NCBI RefSeq assembly: GCF_004010195.1
Contig: NC_057718.1
Coordinates: 89,992,837-90,056,836, forward strand
Direction: 5' to 3'
DNA: 64,000 bases
Source of the DNA: Chiloscyllium plagiosum
Lineage: Eukaryota
Of the stretch, positions 10,505 to 54,955 are shown in pieces. A program made the translations under genes and the position numbers. The stretch's first letter is position 1, and every line of letters starts with the position of its first letter. A model generated the notes under the pieces. That model saw only the letters and a program-made list of their open reading frames with translations, made no database searches and had not been told where the DNA came from.

Positions 10505-10695
10505 TGTCCAAGTCTTTTGATCTATACATCCTGGCTTACTATGATCTGTTTGTACTAAAGCTTCTCACTGTACTTCAGTACACGTGACAATAAATAAATC
10601 AATCAAATTACTACCTTCTGAATATTGGGAAAGGTGTATTCTAACAAGTGCTGAAAGTGTAATTACTCACATCCGTGTCTTGTTTCTGGTTCTAG

Positions 10696-11420
10696 ATACC
10701 GACTCAAAGTACAGCCAAGAAGTGAAACAATTGCTCTATCCTTTATTTGTCTACCTCCACCTTGATATGGTTCACAGTGGTCTGAAGAGTGCAGCCGATA
10801 GTTTCTACAGTCGCTTTCATGGGATGTTCCTACAAAGTACGGACCAGAAGGACATCATGGAACAGCTCCGGACTACTCTGAATAGTCAGGACATTTATTC
10901 AAACTCCAAGCTGCGAAGCCTGACCGAAAATAAATATGTTCTTAGCCTTACTGAAGAAAGTTACAACTATCTCCTCCGCTACCTCCAGAGTGACAACAAT
11001 AGTGCTTTGTGCAAGGTTCTGGCCTCTCGTGTTCAGCTGGATGTGCAGTGTTCTCCACAGACAGGCTATCAGCTGTATAATGCCGGGACGCTATCTCGCA
11101 CCGAGGGGGTGGGCCTGGAGCCCTCTGAGCTACCCTCTACTATGTTGCAGAATGAAGCTGCGCTGGACATGTTGCAGGACAGCATAAAACGGGTAAAAGA
11201 TGGGCCTCCCTCCCTCACAACCATTTGTTTCTATGCTTTCCACAACACGGACCAGCTGCTCAATACTGCGGAAATTTCGCCGAACAATAAACTGCTCAGT
11301 GCTGGCTTTGATAACTCTTGCATCAAACTCTGGAGCTTGAGGGCGAAGAAACTCAAATATGGCCCACAGCAAGTGGACGTCTCTCGGATCAACCTCGCCT
11401 GTGACATCCTGGATGATGAG
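10696..11420 (+). CDS. TAF5L: TAF5L large internal coding exon (725 nt; NTD2 domain and first WD40 repeat)
   Basis: ttctggttctag acceptor and gtacaa donor; LLYPLFVYLHL..FYSRFHGMFLQ..IKRVKDGPPSLTTICFYAF..GFDNSCIKLWSLR matches TAF5L. Confidence 0.97.
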
Positions 11421-12452
11421 GTACAAAAGTGTTTCTGCTACCTGGGTTTTATGCTCATTGGCTAAATCCAGCAGTTAGTATCAAGTTGGACAGGTCTGTT
11501 GTTTAATACTTGGTCACTGGACAGATCTAAGAATTCAATTTTCATTTAATTTTGTTCTCCTGGAGTTCAACCCTTTTAACTCGTTCGTGTTCACAATAGA
11601 ACAAAGAAGCAACCATCTTACCATGCAGTCAGTAAGATGCATGAGGTGAATCACTCAAAGGACTCGCATGCGGGTTGCATTTCATGTTTCCAAGTCCGAC
11701 TACTTTGTTTAACATGAATTTCAAGAGGTTTAAAATATTTAGGGATTACTATTGCTGATGTTGAGGCTCCGATTTAATTGATGCAATCAATACCACAACC
11801 GGGTCTCCACTGACAGACCTTTTAACCTTTTCTTCCACATGTAATAATTTTACTTCAGCTGCAGTCAATTCAACATGGTTCTGTGTTGTAAAATACATAG
11901 TACGTTGGCCGGTGATCCACTCTGTGTGGATCTTAACACTATGCATTCAAGCTAGAAGGTCTCCATCACTCCTAACTCACTGACTTGGATAAAGGCACTG
12001 CGAGTTGTGATGGATTGGATTGAGGACATGCCGAGTGGATACTTTTTGTGTATACCATAGTTGGAAATGGGCCCGTTTTACTTGCTTGTCGTCCTGCACT
12101 TGTTCTGTAATCTGACTCTTATTTTTCCCTTTGCCAACAGTGCTTTCCAATGGTCCTTCCTTTGTCTATTTTTTCTTGGGTATTATTTAAGAAAAAATGT
12201 CTCCAAGTGTAGGCAGCTAAATTATCCCATGGCAAGTGTATGAAAAAGGCAGCTTGCAGAATGTGGAACCGACCCACTTTACAACATTCCTCTTTCACAT
12301 ACTTCAGTTCTGTCATCTTCCCAGCATTCCCTTATCTAACAGAGTCCTTCCCCTGTTTCCCTTAAACCTGGCTCACAGAGGAAATAAAGTTTGGCAATCC
12401 TACATTATGACCCCAAAGTTTGGCTTTGTTGACTCTTTTGATAACCCTTTGA

Positions 12453-13090
12453 AAAGTGAATAATCTCATTTATCTGCCATTGATTTTCCCAATCACCCCA
12501 ACCTGTCCAGATCATGCTGAAGGATCTCCGCATCCTCGTCATGGTTCACCCTCCCACCCAACTGGGTATCATCTGCAAACCTTGAGATGTCACATTTTGT
12601 TCCTTCATCCAAATCATTAATATATCTTGTGAATAGCTGGGATCCTAGTACCGATCTCTGTGGTACCCCACTAGTTACTGCCTGCCAATTTGAAAAGGGC
12701 CCATTAATTCCTACTGTCTGCCAACCAGTTTTCTTTCCATCCCATGCGCTGTAATCTTGCATAAAAATCTCTAATGCGCGATTTTGCCAAACACTCAAAG
12801 TCCAAATATACCACATCGACTGTCTCCTCTTGTCAACTCTACGAGTTACATCTTCATAGAATTCCAATAGATTTGTCAAGCGTGACTTCTCCTTCATAAA
12901 TCCATGCTGACTCTATCTGATCCTGCCACTGCTTTCTAAATGGCTATAAAGTCCTTGATAATGGATTTGAGAATTTTCCCCAATACTGATGTTCGGCTTA
13001 CTGTTTTATAATTCCCTGTTTTCTCTTCAGCTCCCATTTTGAATATTAGAGTGACTTTAGCTACCCTGCAATCTGCAGGGACTATTCCAT
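12453..13090 (-). mobile_element. CR1 LINE RT region (antisense), continuation of 9598-10504
   Basis: Minus ORF 12493-12897 (SGVPQRSVLGSQLF..INDLDEG..FADDTQLGG). Confidence 0.9.
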
Positions 13091-13600
13091 ATATAGATCA
13101 TACTATGAATGGTAAGACTCTGGAAAGTACTGAAGATCAGAGAGACCTTGGTGTGTACACCAACAGATCTCTAAATATAGCAGGCCAAGTGGATAAGGTG
13201 GTTAACAACATCATTTCGGATCCTTGCTGAGTACTAATGGAGGCATAGAACACAAGAGCAGGGAGGTTATGCAGGAGCTGTATTAACTGTTGGCAAGGCC
13301 ATGTCTGGAGTACTGCGTGTAGTTATGGCCACCGCATTAGAGAGACAATGTGATTGCACTAGAAAGGGGTGCACAGAAAAGTTGCCAGGATGCAGCCTGG
13401 GCTGGAGGGTCTGAGCTATGAGGAAAGATTGGACAGGTTTGGGGTTGTTTTCCTTAGGGCAGCAAAAGTTGTGAGGTTTATAAGATGATGAGGGGCATTG
13501 ATATCATGGATAGGATGCACTTTTTTCTTTCTTAGGGTCAATAAGTAGTGTTATGAAGATGTGGGTGTACTGTATCTTTAAGAAAGTTGAAAGGTAGCAG
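13091..13600 (+). mobile_element. degenerate CR1 fragment continuing the copy at 8345-9597
   Basis: MNGKTLESTEDQRDLGV segment, which follows the QMEFN segment ending near 9597 in CR1 ORF2. Confidence 0.75.
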
Positions 13601-13608
13601 AACTACTT

Positions 13609-13907
13609 GACAGCATGGTGGCTCAGTGGTTAGCACTGCTGCCTCACAGCGCCAAGGACCCAGATTCGATTCCAGCCTCTGGAGAATGTGCAAACTCCAC
13701 ATAGACATTCTCCCCGTCGTCTGCGTGGGTTTCCTCCCACAGTCCAAAGATGTGCAGGTCAGATGGATTGGCCAGGCTAAATTGCCCATAGTGTTAGGTG
13801 CATTAGTCAGAGGGAAATGGGTCTTGGTGGGTTACTCTTCAGAGGGTCAGTGTGGACTTGTTGGGCCAAAGGGCCTGTTTCCACACTGTAGGAAATCTAA
13901 TCTAATC
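13609..13907 (+). mobile_element. HE1-type tRNA-derived V-SINE
   Basis: A box GGTGGCTCAGTGG, B-box-like ATTCGATTCC, core GCTAAATTGCCC, CR1-shared tail and (TAATC)n. Confidence 0.9.
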
Positions 13908-13929
13908 ACCAAGTGTTCTGAACAAGATA

Positions 13930-14135
13930 TAATGTAACCTTTTGGTCCAGCAGCTAGTGTAGCTGGTTGCCAGGAATCAAAAACAAACTTGAATTAGGCA
14001 AATCAGTTTAAATTATACACCAAAGAATGCGAACCTCCAATCAAGTTTGCATTTAGTATATTGACAATATTAAAAGCAAATGACACAATCCGATGCTTTG
14101 GGGGTATAAGACCGGGGAAAATTGAACAGTTGTTG
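13930..14135 (+). mobile_element. fragment of LTR-like family B
   Basis: Inverted homology to 5155-5365. Confidence 0.5.
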
Positions 14136-16888
14136 CTGCTTTAAATTAAGCAGGAGGGTTTCCCCCGTGACGTAACATTAGGGGGTATAGATTTATAAGG
14201 TAGATGTTGCAGGAAAGTTAACATCATTTGCCTGGAAGCCATTTTCCTGATTCGGCTGAGAGTTCCATTTTGTGTCCCCAGCCAGAACTTTGCTGGTTCT
14301 GCATTCCTTACTATAAGGTAATGTGAAAGGTTGTCTTTATCTTCCTTCTCAAGATAGTGTCTCCTCCCTTTGCTGAATGATCAGCACAGGCTGTAGAACC
14401 AGTCAAGTTGACATAGACTTTCCAATTAGTCCCCCTTCCTTCTCTAGTTATTGCCTCTTCACAATCATTCAGCCAATTAGGGATATCTCCGCTTAGTGTT
14501 AGCAATCCGTGTAACTAGAGCAGGTGGTAATACCACTTGATCTGTCCACTTGTGGAATGCATAATAGTGCTTTAGTTTTGAACTTAATGACTAACCTCTA
14601 ATTTAGTACCACCTTGTAAGCAGCCAAACTGTGGAATTAATGGTCAGATCCAAGCTGTTTTCTCTATATAATTCTGTAGTACTCTGATGTACTTCGGGAT
14701 AACACCGAGCCATAATTAGGACGGTGAATTCCCCATCATATATTGTGTAATAAACTAATCAGTCCGCAAGGTCCGAGTCTCGAGAGCTTTCTCCAACAGT
14801 AGAAGACTAAGAGGAGAGCAGAGATTATTTTTATTTTACTTGTAATGTGATAGCAGACTGGAACACTACCCATAAAGGATGTTTGAGTCAGAAATCTCAT
14901 CGTATTTCAGCATTATTTATAAGTTCACTTCCATTACCATAGCCTTCAGAGGCATGGGCCAAAGGTTAGAAAATAGGGTAGTTATAGTTAGATATTTATT
15001 GACTGGCACTGATGTTATGGGTGAAATGGCCATCTATTGTGCTGTACATGTTTGAGTCTACGTAGCCTAATCTTATGCCATGCGTTTTATTCATTCGTGG
15101 AATATGAGTTTCCTTGGCATTTAATGCCCATCCCAAATTATTTTTGAAAAGGTGCTGGTCAGCTACCACCTTGAACTGTTACAATCCATATGGCTGTATT
15201 TGCACCCACACTGCTAGGCAGAGAGTTCAGGATTTTGGCCCAATGACCAGATATTTCCATTTCTGGCTGACATTTGATGATAGAGGGAAGCTTGGAGACA
15301 ACGCTTTTCCCATCCACCCATTAGCTTTTGGTCGAGGGTTGAGAGGTGTCTTTCTCAGTTGCTACAGTGCATCTGGTAAAAGGTACACTCTTCAGCTACA
15401 CTCTGCCGACAGTAAACTAAGTAGTGGGCGAACAGCCAGGCTGCTTTGTGCTAGGATTCCAGTCTCTGGCCTGTAGATTTGAGGTCACCAGTGTGGTTTA
15501 TGTACCAGGCAGCAGAGTGGCTAGGAGTCTTTAATCTGAATATTAAGTGGAACAAGTCAGCTTTATTCTGGAGTCACAGCAGAGTTTGATGATTTACATA
15601 TGTTTGAGAATTGACTCCAAATGAGTACAGGAGGTGAAGGGACAAGATGACTTCATTTTCTTGTTGAGTCATCCTCCATTTTCTGATGGAGTTGACCAGG
15701 GCAAGAGATAAATCTGCTCAAGATTCTATAAATTCCTTCACAAAGCCGAAGACATACCATGACCTGGTGGGCCCTGTGGCTACTTATCAATAGTGACCAC
15801 TTAATGGGATATGTGCTGATGTGGATTTACAGCTCATTGACCAGAGAGTTTGTTATTTACTGATTAAGAGGCTAATGGCTGCTCTAGGGTTGCCTAGAGT
15901 TTTAACAACTTCCAAACAAAGATCTTTATATGGACTGGATTCCCTTTTCATTGCTTCTCAGCAGTCAAGACTTGTACGGAGCTGATAACTCTGCTGAAGT
16001 TATCTATCAGATTTTCTGTGAAAACATGCAGAATGCAGGGTTAACATATACACTAGGATATGGAAATTCAATTCTAATATTTCTTTTGAAATGATCTTGG
16101 GTCGGTATTTTTTTGGTGAGAATAATTTCCTTTCCTCCCCTTCTCCACTGGTGCTTCCTGACATGCTGCATATCTACAATATTTTGTCTGTGTTGCAAAT
16201 TTCCCATGCTTGCATTATTTGCAGCTGTAGAATCCACTGGTAAAAATATGAAACCACTGCGGTTAGCTCTCTTCAAGATCATGGCTTTGGTGAGAAAAGC
16301 AGCATAAGTTGGGGCAAGTGTGCCGAAATTGTGCTTTTGTCTCCGAAAAATCGATGCGTAATTGTATGATTTTAACATCAGTGGGTTACCAAGTGTGTTA
16401 ACTTTTTATAATTGAGGCATAATACAAATTGTGTTTACTCTGTTGCATTTTATACACTCTGCCCTTACGTGGTGACGTCTGGGTATGTTCCATCACCTTC
16501 TGGCATGAGTGTTCTGTTATAAACCATGTCTTCTTGCGCAGTTCGCCCACAGCTATTACTCCCTTCATCCTTTTAATTCTCCAAGGTTTGAATCCTAAGT
16601 ACAGGTTAGTCCCCTACCATTTTGTGGAGGTTGGTACAGAGGAGAGAAGAATGATAATATCTTAGTTATATTTTAAAATACGCACTTACTAGTTGTGGAA
16701 GTGTTGAATAGATTTATTTGAATCGATTGATGAATTAATGTAATGTCACCTTTACCTTGGCTGCAAACAATCTGGCCTCCATAGCTGGGGACTTGCTATT
16801 ACCACTCTGTAGTTGGTACTTTCAGTGGCTCCCTGTTCCATGGAATGCACCATCTGTGTCTTCAGGTATTTGCTCCCTGACGTATGAA

Positions 16889-17440
16889 GCATTTTTACAG
16901 AGGACAGGGTGGGAAGAGGTGTAATCTAGGTAGCTGTGGGAGTCAGTCGGTTTATAGTATACGTCCGTGTTGAGTCGGTCGTCCGAGATAGAGATGGAGA
17001 GGTCGTCTCAGACTCCTCCCTCCCCTTCCTAGACCTCTCCATCTCTATCTCGGACGACCGACTCAACACGGACGCATACTATAAACCGACTGACTCCCAC
17101 AGCTACCTAGATTACACCTCCTCCCACTCTGCCCCCTGTAAAAACGCCATCCCATATTCCCAATTCCTTCGCCTTCGCCGCATCTGCTCCCAGGAGGACC
17201 AATTCCAATGCCGAACAACCCAGATGGCCTCCTTCAAAGACCGCAATTTCTCCTCAGACGTGGTTGACGATGCTCTCCACGCATCTCCTCCGCCCTTGAA
17301 CCCCGCCCCTCCAATCGCCACCAGGACAGAACCCCACTAGTCCTCACCTACCACCCCACCAACCTCCATATACATCGTATCATCCGTCGTCATTTCCGCC
17401 ACCTCCAAACAGACTCCACCACCAGGGATATATTTCCCTC
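16889..17440 (+). mobile_element. Penelope-like element fragment with an inverted 5' duplication
   Basis: SLPFLDL..LNTDAYYKPTDSHSYLDYTSSH..CKNAIPYSQFLRLRRICS is the PLE RT thumb/linker; 16889-17004 is the reverse complement of 17032-17147. Confidence 0.85.
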
Positions 17441-17944
17441 GAGAACTTCCTGTAACTGAGCTGTGATGACAAGAACATTATTTGAGCTGGAAATGTTCTC
17501 CTTTTGGTCGTGAACATACTAATAAAGAGTTTGTTCAGAACAGGATGTTTGCTATTGCTGTTTATGAAAGGAAACTGCTGTAATGTGCTTAGTCTGTCTA
17601 TGGCACTGTGGGAATCATAAACTGATGTATTGGAAAACTGCGACTTCATGCCAACAAATTTCTATGAGTTGATTTCATGAGATGGGAAATGATGGAAAAA
17701 TAAGCCTCAACTTTAGAGGAAGCTTCTTCATACCTTCTTAACATCGTAGTTAAAGGAAGGAATCAGTGAATTCAATCCATAGGAGTTGGAGGCTGAAATT
17801 TTCCATTTTTTCTAAATTCCGAAATGTCTCACATGATCTGAACTGAAAAGAAATGAAAGCAAGAACAATCTTCTATTAGATGTCTCCTGCTGTTCTTGAC
17901 ATCATGAACCATTTTTTTTTTAGTCTGGCACAGGGTTGTGGTGT

Positions 17945-18293
17945 AAAATTATGTCCCAATACATGTGTGAATCATAATGTAACACATGTATTGGGCCAAG
18001 CAGTGGAATGTGGTGAAACGGTTAAAAATTATGTCCCAATACATGTGTGAATCATAATGTAACACATGTATTGGGCCAAGCAGTGGAATGTGGTGAAACG
18101 GTTAAAAATTATGTCCCAATACATGTGTGAATCATAATGTAACACATGTATTGGGCCAAGCAGTGGAATGTGGTGAAACGGTTAAAAATTATGTCCCAAT
18201 ACATGTGTGAATCATAATGTAACACATGTATTGGGCCAAGCAGTGGAATGTGGTGAAACGGTTAAAAATTATGTCCCAATACATGTGTGAATC
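17945..18293. repeat. perfect 80-bp tandem repeat, about 4.4 copies, with a 14-bp hairpin per unit
   Basis: ATGTCCCAAT recurs at 17951, 18031, 18111, 18191 and 18271; CCCAATACATGTGT pairs with ACACATGTATTGGG. Confidence 0.97.
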
Positions 18294-18694
18294 TAACCGG
18301 AATGGAGGTGTTGCTTAGTCCCGTGTGAATCTTCTTATCTGTATGTAACCAGAATGGAATGTGTTTTTTAGCCTTGCTCTGCTGTTCACATGAATGTTTA
18401 TATCTGGAAAAGAGTATATCAGCTGGAGAAGTCTCCAGTTCGGTAGAGTCTGCTCCGGGGTTGTGTTTAACCGCCGAGCGTGGGTTGTTGGCAACCGCTC
18501 TACGAGAACTGACGGCTCCCAGTTCCGGTAACATGTAGAGTGAGTATAAGCCAGACCCGATGTAAGTATGAGACCTGGTTGTGGCGACGCTGCGGGGAAT
18601 AAAATGCTCATATTCTAGCAGACTCGCCTCTTGGTCGTTTGTTCTGTGTCAGACTACTCTCCTACGAACCTGACCTTGAGAATTTTTTAAAACA
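18249..18694 (+). mobile_element. possible young LTR-like element
   Basis: CpG-rich patch starting TGTGG, with TATAAG near 18545 and AATAAA at 18598-18603; no target-site duplication found. Confidence 0.3.
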
Positions 18695-18971
18695 CTTAGG
18701 AAAGGCACTTGTGTATGTCATGTTCTGAATGCTCATTTAGTGTACACGAGATCAAAAACAGAGGACAGTATAAGTGTGTGTGACCCTTACATCAGGCTAA
18801 TTTTGCTATCATGCTGTCAAGAGCAGTGTGAGATGTGTAAAACTCTTTAGAGGAGCATATTTGAAGAGAACATCTTTGCTGCTTGCTTACACACTTTATT
18901 GAAATTTACTGTTAATTATATCATTATATCAATGTTATTCATTGCTTTTGCAATTTTTTTCCCAAATGCAG

Positions 18972-19763
18972 GTGGAAGATGATGTGGGCAGTGAAATGAA
19001 AATACTACGAGGACACTGTGGGCCTGTGTATGCTACCAAGTTCCTCTCTGATAATTCAGGACTTCTGTCTTGTTCAGAAGACACAACAGTCCGATACTGG
19101 GATTTGTGCAGTTTCAAGAACACTGGTTTGTATCAAGGACATGTTTATCCCATCTGGGACATCGATATTAGTCCCTTGAGCCTTTACTTTGTGACTGGAT
19201 CACATGATCGGACAGCAAGACTTTGGGCACTTGACAGAACATACCCTCTACGCATTTACGCAGGCCACCTAGCAGATGTAGACTGTGTTAAGTTCCATCC
19301 AAATTCTAATTACATAGCCACAGGCTCAATAGATAAAACTGTGCGGCTCTGGAGTACGCAGCAAGGGAATACTGTCCGTCTCTTCACAGGACATCGGGGA
19401 CCTGTGTTGGCATTAGCTTTCTCTCCTAATGGAAAGTACTTGGCCTCAGCAGGTGAAGATCAGCGACTAAAGTTGTGGGACCTTGCATCAGGTACTTTAT
19501 TCAAAGAACTGAGAGGGCATACTGACAATATAACTAATCTTGCATTTAGTCCCGACAGCAGTTTGATAGTTTCTGCATCTGTGGATAATTCGGTCCGTGT
19601 GTGGGATATTTATAACACTTATTCAAATTCACTGGTGGATGGTTCCTCCAGTGAGCTGGTGGGTGTATACATGGGACCTACCAGCAACCTTTTGAGTGTG
19701 CAGTTCATGGCCTGCAATCTGGTCTTGGTTACTGGTGTTGCACAAGAGAAAAAGGAACAATAA
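18972..19763 (+). CDS. TAF5L: TAF5L last coding exon (WD40 repeats) with TAA stop
   Basis: Polypyrimidine tract and atgcag acceptor; [44 protein letters not shown] matches the TAF5L C-terminus. Confidence 0.98.
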
Positions 19764-22900: not shown

Positions 22901-25900
22901 GGATGCTGGTGTGCAGATATCTTAAAGTTGTCGATTGTTCCCTCACTATTGTCTTCCTGCTATAAGTTCAATTTTTTTTTAAAGTGGAGGTACCAGGAGA
23001 AAGGTGAATTCCACTTTTCCATTCGTGGTAGTACTGTGATGGTGTCGCTATGTAATCATAGCCTTAGGTGTTTATGAGGGAGACAGTGGTAGAGTCATAG
23101 CGAGTGGAATTTGAACTTAATTTATACATTTGCCATTGAAAGTCAGTCATGATTGAGACTAAGAAACTGGCAAATTGTTGTAGGGAAAGAAATCTGTCAT
23201 CTTTTCCTGGTGTGGCCTACGTGTCATTCCAGACCTGTAATAGTATGATTGGTGGTAGTAGTAGCTAAAATGGCTTAGCAATTCACTTGGTTCAAGGACA
23301 GTTATAATGGGCTACAAATGCGAACAATGATGCATCCCCTGAAAGAATAAAGAACATAGTTTATATCTAAATATTGGATTTCTGGATGGGCAAAGTTGAT
23401 GGGAGATGTATAGAGATTAAAGTTTTGTTGATGGTCTGTCAGGTCTAAGAAACATCTCAAAGCATGTGTAACCTGAATTAAATAGCATGCATAAGAAATT
23501 GCACCAAAATTACTTTGAAGGGTTCTTATTAAGTAACCTAACGTGTTTGCTTTAGTGAGCATCTTTTGGAAATCCAAGTACATTACTGGTTTCCTATATC
23601 CTGCTTGTTACCTCTTCAAAAAATGCTAATAAACCTGTAGGCTATGATTTCCCCTTCGTGAAACGACGCTGACTGTACTTGATTTATATGATGAATTTCT
23701 AAATGATCTGCTATTACATCTACTTAACTCAAAGCCTATTTAATTTTAATTATTAGCCTACTTTTCCTTGTGTGAAATGAAAATTAAGTTCGGTTTTAAT
23801 TAAGTTGCTGTTTTCATAAATGCTGCTAGATAGAGTTTTATTGTACAAAATGTAACTGCAAATTGAGCAGTAACACCAAGCAGTGAAAGTAATCTGTCAA
23901 TATTACCTCTTTTGTCAGTTTGAATGGATCTGTCTACGTGGGCTAAAACCATCGATTTACAATTTATTACACTTAAAAAAAAAAAAAGTAGTCTGGAAAA
24001 ATGCAGTGCTAGTAGTTAAAGTCATCGAGCTGGTGTTAAAAGAGAGTGTGCTGGTTATACTGTCCACCAGCATCTGTGGGGAGAGCAAAGAGCAAGCATT
24101 TCAGGTCCATGACTATTCTATTTAAAGGTTAAAGAGTTGAACTGTCTGCATCTGGAATACTCTGCACAGTATTGATTGATCCCCTTTATTTAGAAAACTT
24201 GGAAGCACTTTATTGGACTAATACCGGGAGTAGTGGAGTTGATTTCTCAAGGAAATTTTCAACACACTGTTATCCCCTGCAGTTTTAAAGGATAAGAGAT
24301 TAATTGAATGAACCATGCGAGATCCTGGGGCGAATCGACAGGGTAGACATAGAGACAATGTCTCCTGAATGGGAGAATCTGGATCGAGAGGTCACTACTG
24401 TTTAAAAATCAGGGGTAGCTCATTTAAATCTGATAAGATGACATTTTTTCTGAGGCATATTAGACTTTGGAACACTCTTCCTGAAAAGCAGAGTCCTTGA
24501 GTATTTACAAATTAGAGGTAGGTACGTTCTTGTTAAGTAAGGGGGTTATCAGAGGTAGGTAGGAATGTGCGTTTGAAGTTACAGTCACATCAGGCCTGAC
24601 CTTATTGAGTGGCATAGCAGACTGGAGGGTATAAGTGGCCTACTCCTGATTGAAATGTTCATGCTTTGACCCTGTTTCTCTTCCAGCAGATGCTGCAAGA
24701 AATCTTTCAACTTTGGTTTTTGGTTTTGTTTGGATATTCAGCACCTGAACTATTTTAAGATCTTGCAAGGGGCAGTTGGACGTTGTCATGATGTAGGAAA
24801 TGCCAGTGGCCAGTTCGCACAGAGCCAGTTCCCACAAACAACAAAGTGGTGCTAGTCAGAATATATTATTTGTGATGTGGTTTGAAGGATTCATTCACTG
24901 GCTGTCCCTCGCAGATGAGGATGACTCTTCCACATTCATGGTGAGCCAGTACGTGGCTGTACAGACCGATGGGGGCTACCGTAGGCTCTGTTATACTTGG
25001 GGCAGAAGGTGTTCTTGGGAAGGGGTGGACGGGCATTGGTGTGGAAGCACACTCTGTTACCTGTTCTTGCCTGGTTTCTGTTTTCTCCCAATGGGCAAGT
25101 CTCGAGGTGCTCAATGTCTTCCCAAATGCTGCTCCTTTTGAAGAATAAATATTGGCTGACACACCAAAGATAACTGTCCTTATCATCATCCATGTAGTGC
25201 CACAGTGTGTACAGGGGACCCGGGTTTTAAATCTCATCCAAAAGACGCAGTCTTTGAGATTAAAAATATGTAATTGTGAGGATTAAGCCTGAGATAATTA
25301 TCCTTTTTTGCATTGGATTGTCACCAGCAATATCAATTTCACTGTGTGGATAAATTCCTAATAGCATCTTGAGCAAATGTTACTCACGTCTCTGCATTAG
25401 GTTTTGAGGTCACAACCCATTCCAGAGACCAGAACAAATAATCTGGGCACGAACATGGGAGTGCTGCAGTGTCTAAGATTGCAGACCTGATATTTCGAGG
25501 AGAGATGAATGTGAGTTCCTCTGGCGCTATTTGAAACAAGTCAGGATGTTATCACCAATGTCTTGGTCCAACTTTATCTGATATACTGGCACCTAAATGT
25601 GGATTATCTTATTGTTTATACCTTTTTTTGTGTATAGGAGTATGCTGTGTGCAAATTGGCTGCCGTGTTAGCTTCTACAGTGACTGTAGAATTTGCTGTG
25701 AAAAACTGCGACTTCCTGAGATTTGTGAAAAGGTCTGTATATGCACAATTATTTCTTTCAAGCCATTCCCAACAACAACAGTCTCATCTTGGCAAGGTAT
25801 TTTAAAACCAGTTCTGCCAATTCTCACAAGCTGTCTTTGTCAAGAACAGCCTATGTCCACTTCTGTGTAAAAGGTACATTACTTAATTCATTCTTCAGAT

Positions 25901-37744: not shown

Positions 37745-39280
37745 ACAAAAACAGAAATTGTTGGAAGAACTCTGAGGTCTCATAGCGTCTGTGGGGAGGA
37801 AGCAGAGTTAATGTTTCAAATCCATTTTCTCTGCATTAGAACTGGAAATAGCTAGGACAAACTGGTATTTGTGCTGAAGCCCAAGTGGTGGGCAAGGGCT
37901 GGGGAAGGGAGAGGTAAGCAGATGGATGGAGATGAAGACCAGAGAGAAAGATATGAAAGGGATAGGTTGGCAAGGAGATAATGGATAGCACATGAGGACA
38001 GAAGAAAAGCAGAATAAGAAATAGTAAGAGCAACGAGTGAGAAAGTGGATATGCTATGCTGAAGGCAATCTATATAGTATGAAAAACAAAAACAGAAATT
38101 GCTGGGAAAATTCAGTAGGTCTGGCAGCATCTGTGGAGCAAAAGCAAGATTAACATTTCAAGTCTAGTGACCCTTCTTCAGAATTGATTGTAGCTAGGAG
38201 AAGATTGGTATATATATATATTCAAGAAAGGATGGGAGGAGGGGGTCAAAGATAAAGGATAGGTAGACATGGAGCCCAGAGAGAGAGAAACACAATTAGA
38301 CAAAGGAACGGGTAAAGGACAGTCTGATAAAATGAATAGCTGCTAACAAAGACTATCATGGACTGACAATGGGTTGTGTGTGGAAGCAGGCCATGTGATG
38401 GCAAGGCCTAGTTGGTGGAAGTTGAGGTAAGGACATGGGCGAAGGTGCTCAAGCCCTGAAATTGTTGAATTCGACTTTGAGTCCAGGAGGCTGTAGAGTT
38501 TCCAGGCAGAAAATGAGGTGTTCGTAGAATCCCTTCAGCGTGGAAACAGGCCTTTCAGCTCAACAAATCCACACCGATCCTCCAAAGAGTGATCTACCCA
38601 GACCCATTCCTCTACCCTATTATCCTATATTTACCACTGACTAATGCACCTAACTTACACATCCCTGAAAACTACAGGCAATTTAACACGACTAATTCAC
38701 CTGACCTGCACATCTTTTGGATGCTGGGTGGAAACCGGAGCACCTGGAGGAAACACACGCAGACATGGGGAGAATGTGCAAATCCCACACAGACTGTCAC
38801 CCAAGGCTGGGGAAGGGACTGTGAATGGAGTCGGGGGTGGGAAGGGAGGTTATGTGAAATTGGAGAGCCCAATGTTGAGTCTGCCAGTTTTGGGGGGGGG
38901 GGGGGTTGTGTGGGGCGGTGATGATGCTGAAGGCTGCCCAGATAGATGAGGTGTTGTTCCTCCAATTTGGGGCTTGGTGGCAATGGAGGAGGCCAAGATG
39001 GTCATATTGGAGAGGGAATGGGAAGGGGAATTAAAATGGACGGTGACTGTGACGGGGGGCACTGCAGGCCCAGCTGAGACGCTCGGGGAAACATGCCAAG
39101 TTTACATTTGGTCTCCCCCCATGTAGGGAAGACCCCTGCAGCAAGCCTGTGATGGAGATGTCGGCCAGGGAACGGGATGGCGTGTTGAAATGGCAGGCGA
39201 CAGCCTATGACCCTATAATAGGAAGCTCAGGGTCACTTTTACAGATAAAAGGTAGGTGTTTTGCAAAGCAGTCACCAAGC
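37745..39280 (-). mobile_element. Penelope-like element fragments (antisense) with a nested HE1 SINE (about 38525-38810)
   Basis: Minus-strand KLEEQHLIYLGSLQ resembles the PLE GIY-YIG C-terminus; PLE-type 3' ends at 37745-37830 and 38085-38185. Confidence 0.65.
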
Positions 39281-39424
39281 CTTCACCATATCAAAAAGAC
39301 GGGGCTAAACAGGTTGTTCTGCAAGCATGGATTCGACAGATCGAATGACCTCCTCCAAGGTTGCATCACTGCAAAACTTTACAAAATGCGTTTGGTTTGC
39401 TTTGCAAATTCCACCTTAAGTCGT

Positions 39425-39722
39425 GATTTGGAGATGCCGGTGTTGGACTGGTTAAAAATCACACAACACCAGATTATTGTCCAACAGGTTTAATTGGAAG
39501 CTTTCGGAGCACTGCTCCTTCATTAGGTGGTTGTGGAGTATAATAGTGCTTCCAATTAAACCTGTTGGACTATTACCTGGTGTTGTGATTTTTAATTTTG
39601 TCCACCTTAAATGTTGAAAAATGTGTTGCTCCTGCTCCTTGGATGCTGCCTGACCTGCTGCGCTTTTTCAGCATCACATTTTTAAGCTCTAATCTCCAGC
39701 ATCTGCAGTCCTCACTTTCTCC
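39425..39722. mobile_element. tail-to-tail Penelope-like 3' ends
   Basis: ACAACACCAG..GTCCAACAGGTTTAATTGGAAGC is inverted against GCTTCCAATTAAACCTGTTGGAC..CTGGTGTTGT; degenerate hammerhead core on the minus strand at 39499-39528. Confidence 0.65.
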
Positions 39723-39744
39723 CACCTTAAATGTTCACCAGGAG

Positions 39745-39965
39745 ACAGGGAGGGGGCGCTGCTGCGGGAGGACCGGGCGGGAGGGGGCGCTGCTGCAGAA
39801 GGGTCGGGCAGCAGGGGGCGCTGCTGCGGGAGGACCGGGGCAGGAGGGGGCGCTGCTGCCGGAGGACCGGGCGGGAGGGGGCGCTGCTGCAGGCGGATCG
39901 GGCAGGAGGTGGCGCTGCTGCCGGAGGTCCGGGCTGAAGACGAGGGAGGGCGCTGTTACTGCTGC
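39745..39965. repeat. GC-rich minisatellite, unit about 31 bp, with a CTCF-like core
   Basis: About 7 units of GGAGGGGGCGCTGCTGC..GGAGGACCGG. Confidence 0.9.
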
Positions 39966-40213
39966 ACGGGCAGAGTGTCGGCGTCACCCGCAAATTAAAT
40001 GAGGCAGCGCTTCCTGAAATAATAATATTTCCAATTGGAATCTGATTATCCGTGAGAGGGAAACCGAGATCGTTCATTCGACGGTATTGCCTCGAAATAA
40101 ATCGAGGTAGGAGAGTGCCCCGAAGGGAAGAAGAGGCAGGATCTGGGAGAGTGTAGGCGGGGACCGTTCGGTAAAGGGGAGGGTCTGTGTCCGAATCCCA
40201 GGGGTGGGAATCA

Positions 40214-40440
40214 GCCGGTGTCCAAGGGCGGGGCGGAGCCTGTGTCCAATGGGCGGGGCGGAGCCTGTGTCCAAGGGGCGGGGCGAAGCCGGTGTCCAAG
40301 GAGCGGAGCCGGTATCCAAGGGGCGGGGCGAAGCCGGTGTCCAAGGGGCGGGGCGGAGCTGATGTCCAAGGGGCGGGGCGGAGCTGATGTCCAAGGGGCG
40401 GGACCTTTTGCCAGGACGGATACCGGAAGGGGCGGGGCCG
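40214..40440. repeat. minisatellite, unit about 25 bp, built of Sp1 GC boxes
   Basis: About 8 units of GAGCC(GG/TG)TGTCCAAGGGGCGGGGCG. Confidence 0.9.
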
Positions 40441-40492
40441 AGTCTGTGCTCGGGGTCACATGCGACCAGCCTGTGTTTGTTTGGGCCGCAGG

Positions 40493-40643
40493 ATGCAGCT
40501 GAAGGAGATTGTTCGCTGGAATGTCCGCGTGTCCCTTCTTTATGCCATTGGCATCTGGACCATGCTCGGCACCTATGGCTTCTTCCACCTGAAGAAGAAG
40601 CGGGAGCTGGCAGCGATCGAGAACAGCACCCAGGACTCGGCAG
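40493..40643 (+). CDS. SMIM26: small integral membrane protein 26, exon 1
   Basis: MQLKEIVRWNVRVSLLYAIGIWTMLGTYGFFHL resembles human MYRNEFTAWYRRMSVVYGIGTWSVLGSLLYY; donor CAG|GTAAGG, phase 1; DTD1 lies downstream as in mammals. Confidence 0.9.
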
Positions 40644-40645
40644 GT

Positions 40646-41146
40646 AAGGGCAAAGGTCACAACCTCCCACCCCGTGAAGGGCAAAGGTCACATCCTCCCA
40701 CCCCGTGAAGGGCAAAGGTCACATCTTCCCAACCCGTGAAGGGCAAAGGTCACATCCTCCCACCCCGTGAAGGGCAAAGGTCACATCCTCCTACCCCATG
40801 AAGGGCAAAGGTCACATCCTCACACCCCATGAAGGGTAAAGGTCTCATCCTCCCACCCTGTGAAGGGCAAAGGTCACAACCTCCTAACCCCGTAAAGGGC
40901 AAAGGTCACATCCTTCTATCCCCATGAAGGGCAAAGATCACATCCTCCCACCCCTGTGAAGGGCAAAGGTCACGTCCTCCCATCCTGTGAAAGCCAAAGG
41001 TCACAGCCTCCCACCCCGTGCAGGGAAAAGGTCATCCTCCCACCCTGTGCACAGCAAAGGTCAGTTTGTGCAGGGCAAAGGTCATTCCCTCCCACTCCGT
41101 GGAGGGTAAAGGTTACCTCCCCACCCCATGCAGGGTAAAGGTCACT
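40646..41146. repeat. 30-32-bp minisatellite, 17 units, filling most of the SMIM26 intron
   Basis: Unit GAAGGGCAAAGGTCACATCCTCCCACCCCGT. Confidence 0.95.
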
Positions 41147-41267
41147 GGCTGGCTGCTACCTTCCCCCCCATTGTAGGAAAAAGGTGACGGATGAAGGCCC
41201 TGATATGTTTTAGCATTGTTGGCCTTGCTTTTACATTAAATAAAGGTTAACTTTGTTTTTTTTTCAG

Positions 41268-41437
41268 CAGTCACTTACCAAGAGGAGATCAGTTTGGAAC
41301 CTCAAAAACAAGTTACCAAAGAATTTGTGGAGACAAAAGTTGTTGCAAAGGAAGGTTTTGTTCCCTTTTCATTCAGAATCTACAAATATGGGAAATCTCT
41401 CTTTGGTGTTTCATCTGATACTTCAATAGAGAAGTAG
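41268..41437 (+). CDS. SMIM26: SMIM26 exon 2 with TAG stop (protein about 106 aa)
   Basis: Poly-T tract and CAGCAG acceptor; EFVETKVVAKEGFVPFSFRIYKYGKS resembles human FYVETVVTYKEDFVPNTEKILNYWKS; in frame with exon 1. Confidence 0.9.
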
Positions 41438-42491
41438 AGTTCAGAACAATAACTAACGCAGGTGATACTGCTAGGGAGTTCATGCTTCAGTTTTCTTATG
41501 GACAATGAGGATTTCTCTACGTGCCCCCAATTTGTACAGTTGCTTTGGATGGTGTAGACTGTGCTTAAGTGCCTAGTGTCTATGATCTATTGAGCCTCAT
41601 TTGATCTATTATTTTGAAGACTATGTATCAGTTTCTAATGGACAGTGTCTGTACATCTACATTTTTTGCACAGTGGGACATCAGTAGCATTTTGAGAGAA
41701 TTCAGCTATTTTTAAATTATGGGGGAAATTTGTTTCCAAACAACTGAAGGCTTTACCATGCCACATTTTTGTACTTACATAGTCAACTCCAGAATACTTT
41801 TTTGCATGTGCAAACACATTGTTTCTTCTTCCTTTCTTCCACAACTGCTCTGGAATCAATCAACAGGTTGGAGTGGCTGATATGATTGATCCTCTTTATC
41901 CAGCCGGCTTTAGCTTTTCAAAAATGTGGTTATATTCTGGAAAGTGAACTGGTGAAGGATTGTGCTGGATCAAATCTTTCCTCAAACGTACCTTTTATTT
42001 ACAGAGTGAAAAATCTACAATCTCCGAACACAAGCACACACCGCTTCAATAAGTCTCTTTATATGTGTTCAAGTGAAACTCCATTTTAAAACCACTGATG
42101 GGGTAAAATTGACAATGAAGACCCAATCTAGAAGTAGGTTTAATGCATTATTTTCATGACTTGAGTTATGTATTATACAAATTCATTGTCACTATTTACA
42201 TGCATGTTTTGTGTTGGACATATGAATCAGCAGGTTGGGAGCAGATTAAAACTAAACTGATGTATTTTACTGCCATTGTAGTGAACCTTCACTTTGAAAG
42301 AAGGATTGATATGATTATTGTGACTTTGCAAGATGCATGGGAATTTTAAATGATTGCTGTTCATTAATTTAGGACTGTATAAAACTAACCCTGTTCCAGG
42401 AGTTTGAAGATTCACCATTGGGTTTAGATTCCACCTGATTGGGAATGAGACTTGATCTGATTATGTATTAGTTGTGTTGATATTGTTAACT

Positions 42492-42497
42492 AATAAA
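42492..42497 (+). terminator. candidate SMIM26 polyadenylation signal
   Basis: AATAAA about 1 kb after the stop. Confidence 0.35.
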
Positions 42498-43217
42498 ATT
42501 GGAGTGATACTAAATTTGAAATGACAAGACAATCACTTACAATCTGTTCATTTGTTAATGATACAACAGGTAGGAATTGGATGTGAAATTATGCCTCTGA
42601 AGGCTCCTCAAATACCTGGATTGCAGCAATTAATTTTGCAATAGTTTCTATTTTGTGCTTTGATTCGTGCAATGGCTGAAGTTGTGAAGGGACCACAAGC
42701 TGTTTGCTCTCTGTGGCTCACCTTGTGTGGACAATAGGCACTGAAATTTCCCATTGTGCTGACCAGCCCTTCAAGTTATATTGAGAGTCTGCCCATGTGG
42801 ATGTAAAGCTGGAGAAATCTGAGGATCTTGGGGCACAGTGGAAGTGTCCCTACCTCTGAGCCAGGAGGTCTGCATTGAAGGCTCACCTCACATGGTTATG
42901 TGTCATAACAGGTTCAGACAGGTTTTTTTTATTTATGGAGGGCTTTGGCGAGGCAAGAGAGAAACACCCCAGTTACTGGGGCTGGATTTGATCTGTGAGC
43001 TTTTCTGCTTTGAAGTTATGAGCATTAGAATTAGAAGCTTATGTAGACCACTCAGCTCCTTAATCCTGCTGTGCAATGCATTAATATTGTTGCTAATCTG
43101 ATTACTCCATATTCCTGCCTACCCCTGTTAATCCTCCATCACCAACTCATCAAGGATAACCTGCTTCTGCCTTAAAAATATTCAAAGATTCTGCCCACGC
43201 CATCTTTTGAGGAAGAG

Positions 43218-53907: not shown

Positions 53908-54955
53908 TAGAGTCAAACAGCACAGAAACAGACCCTTTGGTGCAACCAGTCCATGCCGACCATGATCCCAAACTAAACTCGTCCCATTTGCCAGTGCTTG
54001 TCCCATATCACTCCAAACCTTTCCTATTCATGAAGTTATCCAAATGTCTTTTAACATTGTAACTGTACTTGCATCCACCACTTCCTCCGGCAGTTCATTC
54101 CACACATGAACCACTCTCGTGTAAAAAAAGTTATTTCTTGTGTCCTTTTTAAATCTTTCTCCTTTCATTTTAAAAATATAGCCCCTAGATTTGAACTCCC
54201 CAACTTTAGGGAAAAGGTCATTTTCATTCACCTTATCTACGCCCCTCATGATTTTATAAAACTCTATAATGTCATCCCTCAACTTCCTGCACTTCAATGA
54301 CAAAAGTTCCAGCCTTCCTAGTCCATTTTTATATCACAAGCCCTCCATTCCCAGCAACATCCTGGTAAATCTCTTCTGAACCCCCTCCAGTTTATTAATA
54401 TCCTTCCAATAACAGAGACCAGAACTGGACACAGTATTCCAGAACAGGCCTCACTAACATCCTGTACAATCTCAACATGATGCCCCAACTCCTGTACTCA
54501 AAGATCTGCGCAAGTGTGCTAAATGCCTTCTGAACCATCCTGTCTACATGTGACACAAACTTCAAAGAATTATGTACCTGAACCTCTAGGTCTCTCTATT
54601 CTCGAACACTACCCGGGGCCCAACCATTAACTGTATGAGCCCTGCCCTTGTTTGTATTAACAAAATGCAGCACCTTGCATTTATCCAAGTTAAACTCCTC
54701 AACTCATTGATTCAATTGCTCAAGACGCTCATAGATAACCATCTTCACTGTCCACTACATCACTAATTTTGGTGTCATCTGCAAACTTACTAACCATGCC
54801 TCCTATACAATCATTTGTGTAAATGACAAACAAGGGTGGACCCAGTATCGATTCCTGTGGAACACCGTTGGTGTTCCAGTCTGAGAAACAACCCTCCACC
54901 ACGCCCCTCTGTCTCCGATCATAAAGCCAATTCTGTGTCCAATTCACAAGCTCAT
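53908..54955 (-). mobile_element. CR1 3' portion (antisense)
   Basis: Minus ORFs 54028-54303 and 54729-55088 (SKFADDTKI). Confidence 0.9.

Follow-up and report, generated by a model that had tools for sequence, protein, structure and literature searches.

A 17-unit intronic minisatellite with DR1-type words in a SMIM26-like gene of a bamboo shark, and a tentative account of its origin

The window (the whole stretch of DNA analysed, 64,000 nt of the Chiloscyllium plagiosum contig NC_057718.1) contains a two-exon gene on the forward strand. Coding exon 1 is located at 40493..40643 (50 codons and 1 nt) and its translation is 100% identical over 50 amino acid residues to P0001, a Chiloscyllium punctatum protein annotated as SMIM26-like. 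Coding exon 2 is located at 41268..41437 (to the stop codon, + strand), and 52 of its 55 residues are identical to the same protein. The sole intron of the coding region (40644..41267, +, 624 bp, GT-AG) ends in a tandem CAGCAG acceptor, and a start of exon 2 at 41268 or 41271 gives a product of 106 or 105 amino acid residues, which matches two annotated isoforms. Homologues annotated as SMIM26-like were found in six other shark species, the best Atlas protein clusters for the gene were chordate SMIM26-like, and no Pfam family was matched when both exons were searched. The gene, named as SMIM26 in the earlier note, is therefore supported by similarity as SMIM26-like, a name that comes from the database annotation of its homologues, and human SMIM26 likewise has two exons and an alternative acceptor of 3 nt. 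The human gene has two isoforms that lie 3 nt apart at the start of exon 2 (PMC8395196). The 3-nt isoforms at the CAGCAG acceptor (41265-41270) are apparently common to shark and human SMIM26 and, if shared, would represent a very old conserved NAGNAG. Human SMIM26 has been assigned to the housekeeping class and its mitochondrial localisation has been reported, while a review describes a role in mitochondrial serine and complex I metabolism.

A gene with TFIID_NTD2 and WD40 Pfam matches, which we take to be TAF5L by name (TAF5L-like, 10545-19763, +), lies 21 kb upstream. It contains an 80-bp tandem repeat (17945-18293; 4.4 copies, 100% identical), which has either expanded very recently or is an artefact of the assembly. 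When the 96 minus-strand frames of at least 45 aa between 19.9 and 40.2 kb were searched with Pfam, which misses short exons, one sub-threshold match was obtained and no head-to-head partner gene was found. An open frame at 24869-25282 (-) of 138 codons, without a Pfam match, is possibly an exon of some gene.

The promoter region of the SMIM26-like gene lies in a CpG island (39501..40750; GC 0.59-0.64, CpG o/e 0.65-0.90). The approximate transcription start region was placed at 40454..40470 (+) from the loose 5' ends of RNA reads and contigs at 40468 (three reads of run X21), 40470 (run X16) and 40454 (run X20); the loose letters at these ends are presumably adaptor-like. Two further minisatellites were found in the island. 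Minisatellite A (39749..39934, +) consists of six copies of a 31-bp unit without a DR1, in which the human hypervariable minisatellite core GGGCAGGANG is matched twice; this core is listed together with the C-rich repeat and hotspot words in PMC2408603. Substitutions in its units are uneven, with 2 in a near-invariant block of 16 columns versus 14 in the other 15 columns. This 16-nt block keeps its CpG and shows one internal variant, G to T. We take the block to be CTCF-like (the 3' part of the site), a motif that the G to T variant presumably also fits; since it may itself be a factor site, the block is no clean control for the conservation tests below. Minisatellite B (40213..40402, +; 25-bp unit, 7.8 copies) lies directly upstream of the start region and has what we assume to be a GC-box word in most units and, in one unit, a CCAAT beside the GC box. 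In human, VNTRs were reported to be enriched at CpG islands and within less than 1 kb of genes (PMC8096271).

The third array, minisatellite C (40644..41146, +), consists of 17 tandem units with a consensus of 31 bp and a DR1-type word in each, arranged head to tail and within the 10-60 bp unit range of minisatellites. It occupies 81% of the 624-bp intron, from about +180 to about +680 relative to the 5' ends of the RNA. The 17 units were recovered by anchoring on AAAG[GA]T[CT] (span 40647 to 41146, anchors 40652 to 41137), and the same 17 units were obtained by a periodic-consensus alignment without anchors; TRF reported 40646-41063 with a period of 31, 13.5 copies and 85% matches. The 16 complete units measured 31 bp (n = 10), 32 bp (n = 3), 29 bp (n = 2) and 21 bp (n = 1), and unit 17 consists of the motif only, so that the 30-32 bp first given for the units is right for 13 of the 16 complete ones (31 or 32 bp) but the range is really 21-32 bp. 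The exact 13-mer AGGGCAAAGGTCA occurs in 10 of the 17 units (at 40647, 40678, 40709, 40740, 40771, 40802, 40864, 40896, 40960 and 41072), and AAAGGTCA, which we take to be the NR4A site, is exact in 14. The array described in the earlier note is thus real, with these counts of the two words. When one mismatch at most was allowed, the motif was found at 14 sites in the window (13 in the array and one at 54208) versus 0.13 expected. Units 2-11 are homogeneous (87-100% to the consensus) and units 13-17 are degenerate, the divergence of the distal units from the consensus being 16-23%. No G-quadruplex pattern was found on either strand of the array, and an Rfam search over 39000-43000 gave no matches. 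The CpG o/e over the body of the array is 0.17-0.23 and, by eye, the junction CpG reads CG in 7, CA in 4 and TG in 4 of the 15 full junctions; the low ratio and the loss of junction CpGs suggest that germline methylation has acted at the shore of the island.

The DR1 of unit 1 (AGGGCA-A-AGGTCA; 40647..40659, +), which is unchanged in record 1 of the DNA run X1, begins at intron position +4 and overlaps positions +4..+6 of the splice donor (CAG/GTAAGG, intron from 40644), as had been claimed for the start of the array. The donor consensus is matched at 8 of 9 positions at unit 1 and at 7 or fewer at every other GT; a good donor is present in unit 1 alone, and the donor itself is therefore not repeated. 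Among the 17 units checked, an exon end with a 5' splice site in each unit, as in a donor-amplifying minisatellite, was not found. The reads of four out of 24 matching sequencing runs were compared with 40403-40677 only. In the RNA of three organisms (runs X21, X16 and X20; only 19 reads mapped for X21), the fit ends at 40643 and continues as exon-2 letters, and no RNA depth was observed over 40653-40677. RNA-type data of organisms B and C contained no intron sequence. The exon 1 of organism C differs from the window at 3 of 154 letters versus 16-23% for the distal units from the consensus, which leads to the prediction that bamboo sharks have the array in common. Reads of X21 differ from the window at 40463 (4/4), 40481 (4/8) and 40513 (11/11), sites at which the X1 contig agrees with the window; X21 and X1 are labelled as one organism. 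The sole locus (L001) obtained from 77 metagenome stretches, as shark host DNA, was spurious, without an exon-like match, DR1 or repeat.

The DNA run X1 gave one contig equal to the window over all 275 letters, and X1 may be the source of the window. A second X1 contig (record 3; 373 letters, depth 2.5) holds units 7, 8, 12 and 13 at the window's spacing, with 132 nt from unit 8 to unit 12 as in the window. Before unit 7, it carries a unit that is one letter from unit 1, the window's unit at this place being three letters away, and one letter of unit 12 differs (the window's variant is absent from record 3). These differences suggest either imperfect assembly or an allele whose units are ordered differently. 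The contig of the consensus unit has a depth of 5.7 versus 2.8 in the flank and, given that this is about twice the flank, a large collapsed array is not indicated, although contig depth does not measure copy number.

The motif was scored as the mismatch count to AGGTCAnAGGTCA in place of curated PWMs. Its single mismatch to AGGTCAnAGGTCA falls in the 5' half-site, the 3' half-site is perfect and the spacer is 1 nt, and 10 of the 17 units carry the sequence of a DR1 response element. Shuffling gave an equally good DR1 in 3 units out of 60000, and among circularised 31-mers of the window there was 1 in 20000, a chance of about 1e-4 per unit; any DR, IR or ER element (0-5) as good was obtained in 6 of 4000 window 31-mers. 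Such a match would be rare per array and probably not rare across a multi-gigabase genome and many motif families. The word GGGCAAAGGTCA within it is the core of the ApoC3 probe used in HNF4 gel shifts (PMC6728925) and of an APOC3 PPAR site (PMC10604751). The canonical DR1 assignment accordingly holds strongly by the mismatch scan, by GGGCAAAGGTCA and by the perfect 3' half-site, 12 of the 13 motif letters being equal to the APOC3 HNF4 probe core.

Binding of this DR1 by many receptors in vitro is likely, judging from known sites. As reported in PMC3384313, RXR, COUP-TF2 and HNF4 prefer the good half-site on the 3' side, canonical probes with a 3' AGGTCA favoured COUP-TF2 and RXR, and the HNF4-specific word (H4-SBM) is CAAAGTCCA, in the 3' part. 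The HNF4-specific word was found in 0 of the 17 units. According to PMC3019231 and PMC4014424, TR4 peaks fall for the most part in the first exon or intron of basic-function genes, less than 1 kb from the start, and are enriched in DR1 and ETS words; PMC3019231 also reports a DR1 in fewer than 30% of TR4 peaks, about 150 TR4 sites with a DR1, and ELK4-co-bound TR4 sites without DR1 enrichment. An ETS word (CCGGAA; 40423..40428, +), the motif being that of PMC3019231, lies just upstream of the start region. With a DR1 in the first intron at about +180, a CpG-island housekeeping gene and the ETS word at 40423, TR4/TR2 would be the most fitting reader of the putative DR1 sites. The phasing of the sites on one helical face, proposed from the unit length, proved uninformative: the phase resultant of the 17 sites is 0.51 at 10.5 bp per turn or 0.81 at 10.4, and the neighbouring minisatellite A also has a period of 31 without any DR1.

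The conservation of the motif was analyzed by the substitutions of each unit from the consensus. Changes were found at 11 of 219 positions in the DR1 (13 columns), 3 of 134 in the core and 34 of 282 in the spacer (27 of 250 without the two CpG columns), and the DR1 and the core were each the least-substituted window of their own length (rank 1 of 31). A Fisher P of 0.007 for motif versus spacer was set aside because the cells share ancestry. In a column permutation without the CpG columns, the DR1 gave a P of 0.058-0.075 and the core one of 0.012-0.013; when the edge or truncated units 1, 14 and 17 were removed, the values were 0.066-0.083 and 0.050-0.056, respectively. A neutral duplication-mutation simulation, in which 4623 of 6000 runs with a similar total change count were kept, gave P of 0.16 for the DR1 and 0.10 for the core. 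The units had initially been anchored on the core, which is also the element tested. Selection on the motif is therefore suggestive and not significant. The per-position comparison that the earlier note had called for shows fewer substitutions in the motif (11/219 versus 34/282), but its P of 0.06-0.08 by permutation and 0.16 under neutral duplication leaves the proposed selection on a homotypic array borderline.

The contrast between motif and spacer came mostly from the 4 nt 5' and the 3 nt 3' of the motif, and the pyrimidine tract, with 9 substitutions in 151 positions, varies about as little as the DR1. Within units 12-17, 1 substitution in 34 was counted for the 3' half-site, 1 in 41 for the pyrimidine tract and 7 in 36 for the 5' half-site, and the full DR1 was average (rank 16-17 of 31). 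Length changes fell in the spacer in one alignment; in the other, one 2-nt gap fell ambiguously in the last two columns of the motif. That the core outlasts the spacer in the distal units is thus correct only with respect to the flanks of 3-4 nt and to indels, but the pyrimidine tract is kept equally well.

Taken together, the array is best explained, at a level of confidence just on the favourable side of even, as a minisatellite at the edge of a promoter that passively multiplied a promoter-proximal DR1 seed. A segment at the start of the intron containing one DR1 would have been tandemly duplicated again and again, so that the degenerate units at the 3' end would be the older ones and those close to the donor are still homogeneous. 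The seed DR1 was probably a working site, and we predict binding of its copies by DR1 receptors of broad expression (TR2/TR4, COUP-TF or RXR dimers are the candidates), so that the array would at most tune the output of a housekeeping gene, perhaps with the number of copies. The amplification itself would then be incidental to the instability of repeats at this place and would not reflect the building of an enhancer for liver or lipid signalling. Passive amplification is favoured by the two further minisatellites in the same island together with the enrichment of VNTRs at CpG islands, by the 8 of 15 junction CpGs that are now TG or CA, and by the housekeeping class of human SMIM26. A working seed is favoured by the chance of about 1e-4 per unit, the 3' polarity and rank 1 of 31. 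It is weakened by the P values under neutral duplication (0.16 and 0.10), by the commonness of ETS words at such promoters and the lack of DR1 enrichment at ELK4-co-bound TR4 sites, and by the chance motif arrays expected at genome scale (6/4000 31-mers), and, with a DR1 fraction below 30% and a count of about 150 sites, a given promoter is a priori unlikely to have a real DR1.

The strongest alternative, which we regard as unlikely but deserving of weight, is that the minisatellite is neutral, its DR1 match coincidental and not used by any receptor in vivo. Of the 4623 neutral runs, 16% reproduced the contrast for the DR1 and 10% for the core, the full DR1 ranked only 16-17 of 31 in units 12-17, and the CpG decay suggests germline methylation. 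The near-invariant block of minisatellite A indicates that uneven conservation need not mean DR1 function, and the spacer of the DR1 units resembles the C-rich repeat and hotspot words of PMC2408603. Against coincidence, the per-unit chance is about 1e-4, the array has precisely the position at which such sites act, both the DR1 and the core rank first of 31, and the block of minisatellite A may be a factor site.

A wider version, in which the housekeeping promoter was rebuilt from three minisatellites that multiply CTCF-like, GC-box and DR1 sites and the DR1 array is a selected, copy-number-variable dial through which nuclear receptors would control the mitochondrial microprotein SMIM26, within a genome-wide habit of bamboo sharks of multiplying promoter sites by tandem duplication, is considered doubtful. 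Slightly more doubtful is the selected homotypic enhancer for HNF4, PPAR:RXR or NR4A, which would connect SMIM26 with liver, lipid or stress signalling in proportion to the number of copies. The identity of the word with the APOC3 site core, the retention of AAAGGTCA in 14 of 17 units, the core permutation with all units (P 0.012-0.013), the 33-bp VNTR of TRIB3, in which expression can scale with site number, and the action of SMIM26 in mitochondrial serine and complex I metabolism are all consistent with it. However, leaving out the three edge or truncated units raised the core P to 0.05-0.06 and the simulation put it at 0.10, the anchoring of the units used the tested core, the phasing is not diagnostic, and 3' AGGTCA probes favour COUP-TF2 and RXR. 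The tie to liver and lipid signalling put forward in the earlier note is not upheld, human SMIM26 being housekeeping, CAAAGTCCA being absent, and the array lying at about +180 to +680, where the ubiquitous TR4 binds. A repeat that amplifies splice donors and acts on splicing, or an array that is largely an assembly artefact, is very improbable: the array does begin at the donor and X1 does disagree with the window at two units, but no later unit reproduces the donor, in all three RNA-type runs (3 of 3) the RNA leaves at 40643 for exon 2, so that this reading is already largely refuted as far as the first donor is concerned, and X1 contains units 1, 7, 8, 12 and 13 at the window's spacing, its consensus-unit contig having a depth of 5.7 versus 2.8 in the flank.

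Should receptors bind the copies, the array would be a natural cluster of 17 nuclear-receptor sites made by repeat expansion. If they are not bound, it would be an ordinary minisatellite, and motif-bearing arrays would arise readily at the CpG islands of this genome. Within the open-access literature searched, no title or opening of an abstract described a VNTR with one DR1 per unit or this shark locus, and the exact 13-mer was met only in papers that are unrelated by title.

Among known systems, the array is similar to the TR4/TR2 sites in that its DR1 has an A spacer and lies in the first intron of a housekeeping-type gene, less than 1 kb from the start, with an ETS word nearby; unlike the shark locus, these sites involve no tandem arrays as described in the parts of PMC3019231 and PMC4014424 used here. 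It shares an identical 12-letter core, GGGCAAAGGTCA, with the DR1 of the APOC3 promoter (PMC6728925, PMC10604751), although the latter is a single site with another 5' flank, upstream of an apolipoprotein gene, and the shark copies lie downstream of the start. In architecture, it resembles the 33-bp VNTR of the human TRIB3 promoter, where the number of sites scales expression (PMC7425993): the unit measures about three helical turns, lies near the promoter and carries one factor site per copy. In TRIB3, a single-copy site was multiplied by tandem duplication (PMC7425993), and the same history is proposed for the shark array. The TRIB3 VNTR has 1-5 identical copies of a C/EBP-ATF site that is conserved across mammals, with reporter and eQTL proof (PMC7425993), whereas the shark array has 17 diverged DR1 copies and is intronic. 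At best, by analogy, the shark array may work like the TRIB3 33-bp VNTR and, if bound, would make it easy to test whether a housekeeping gene is retuned when a single promoter site is duplicated in tandem, as with the ATF4 site of TRIB3.
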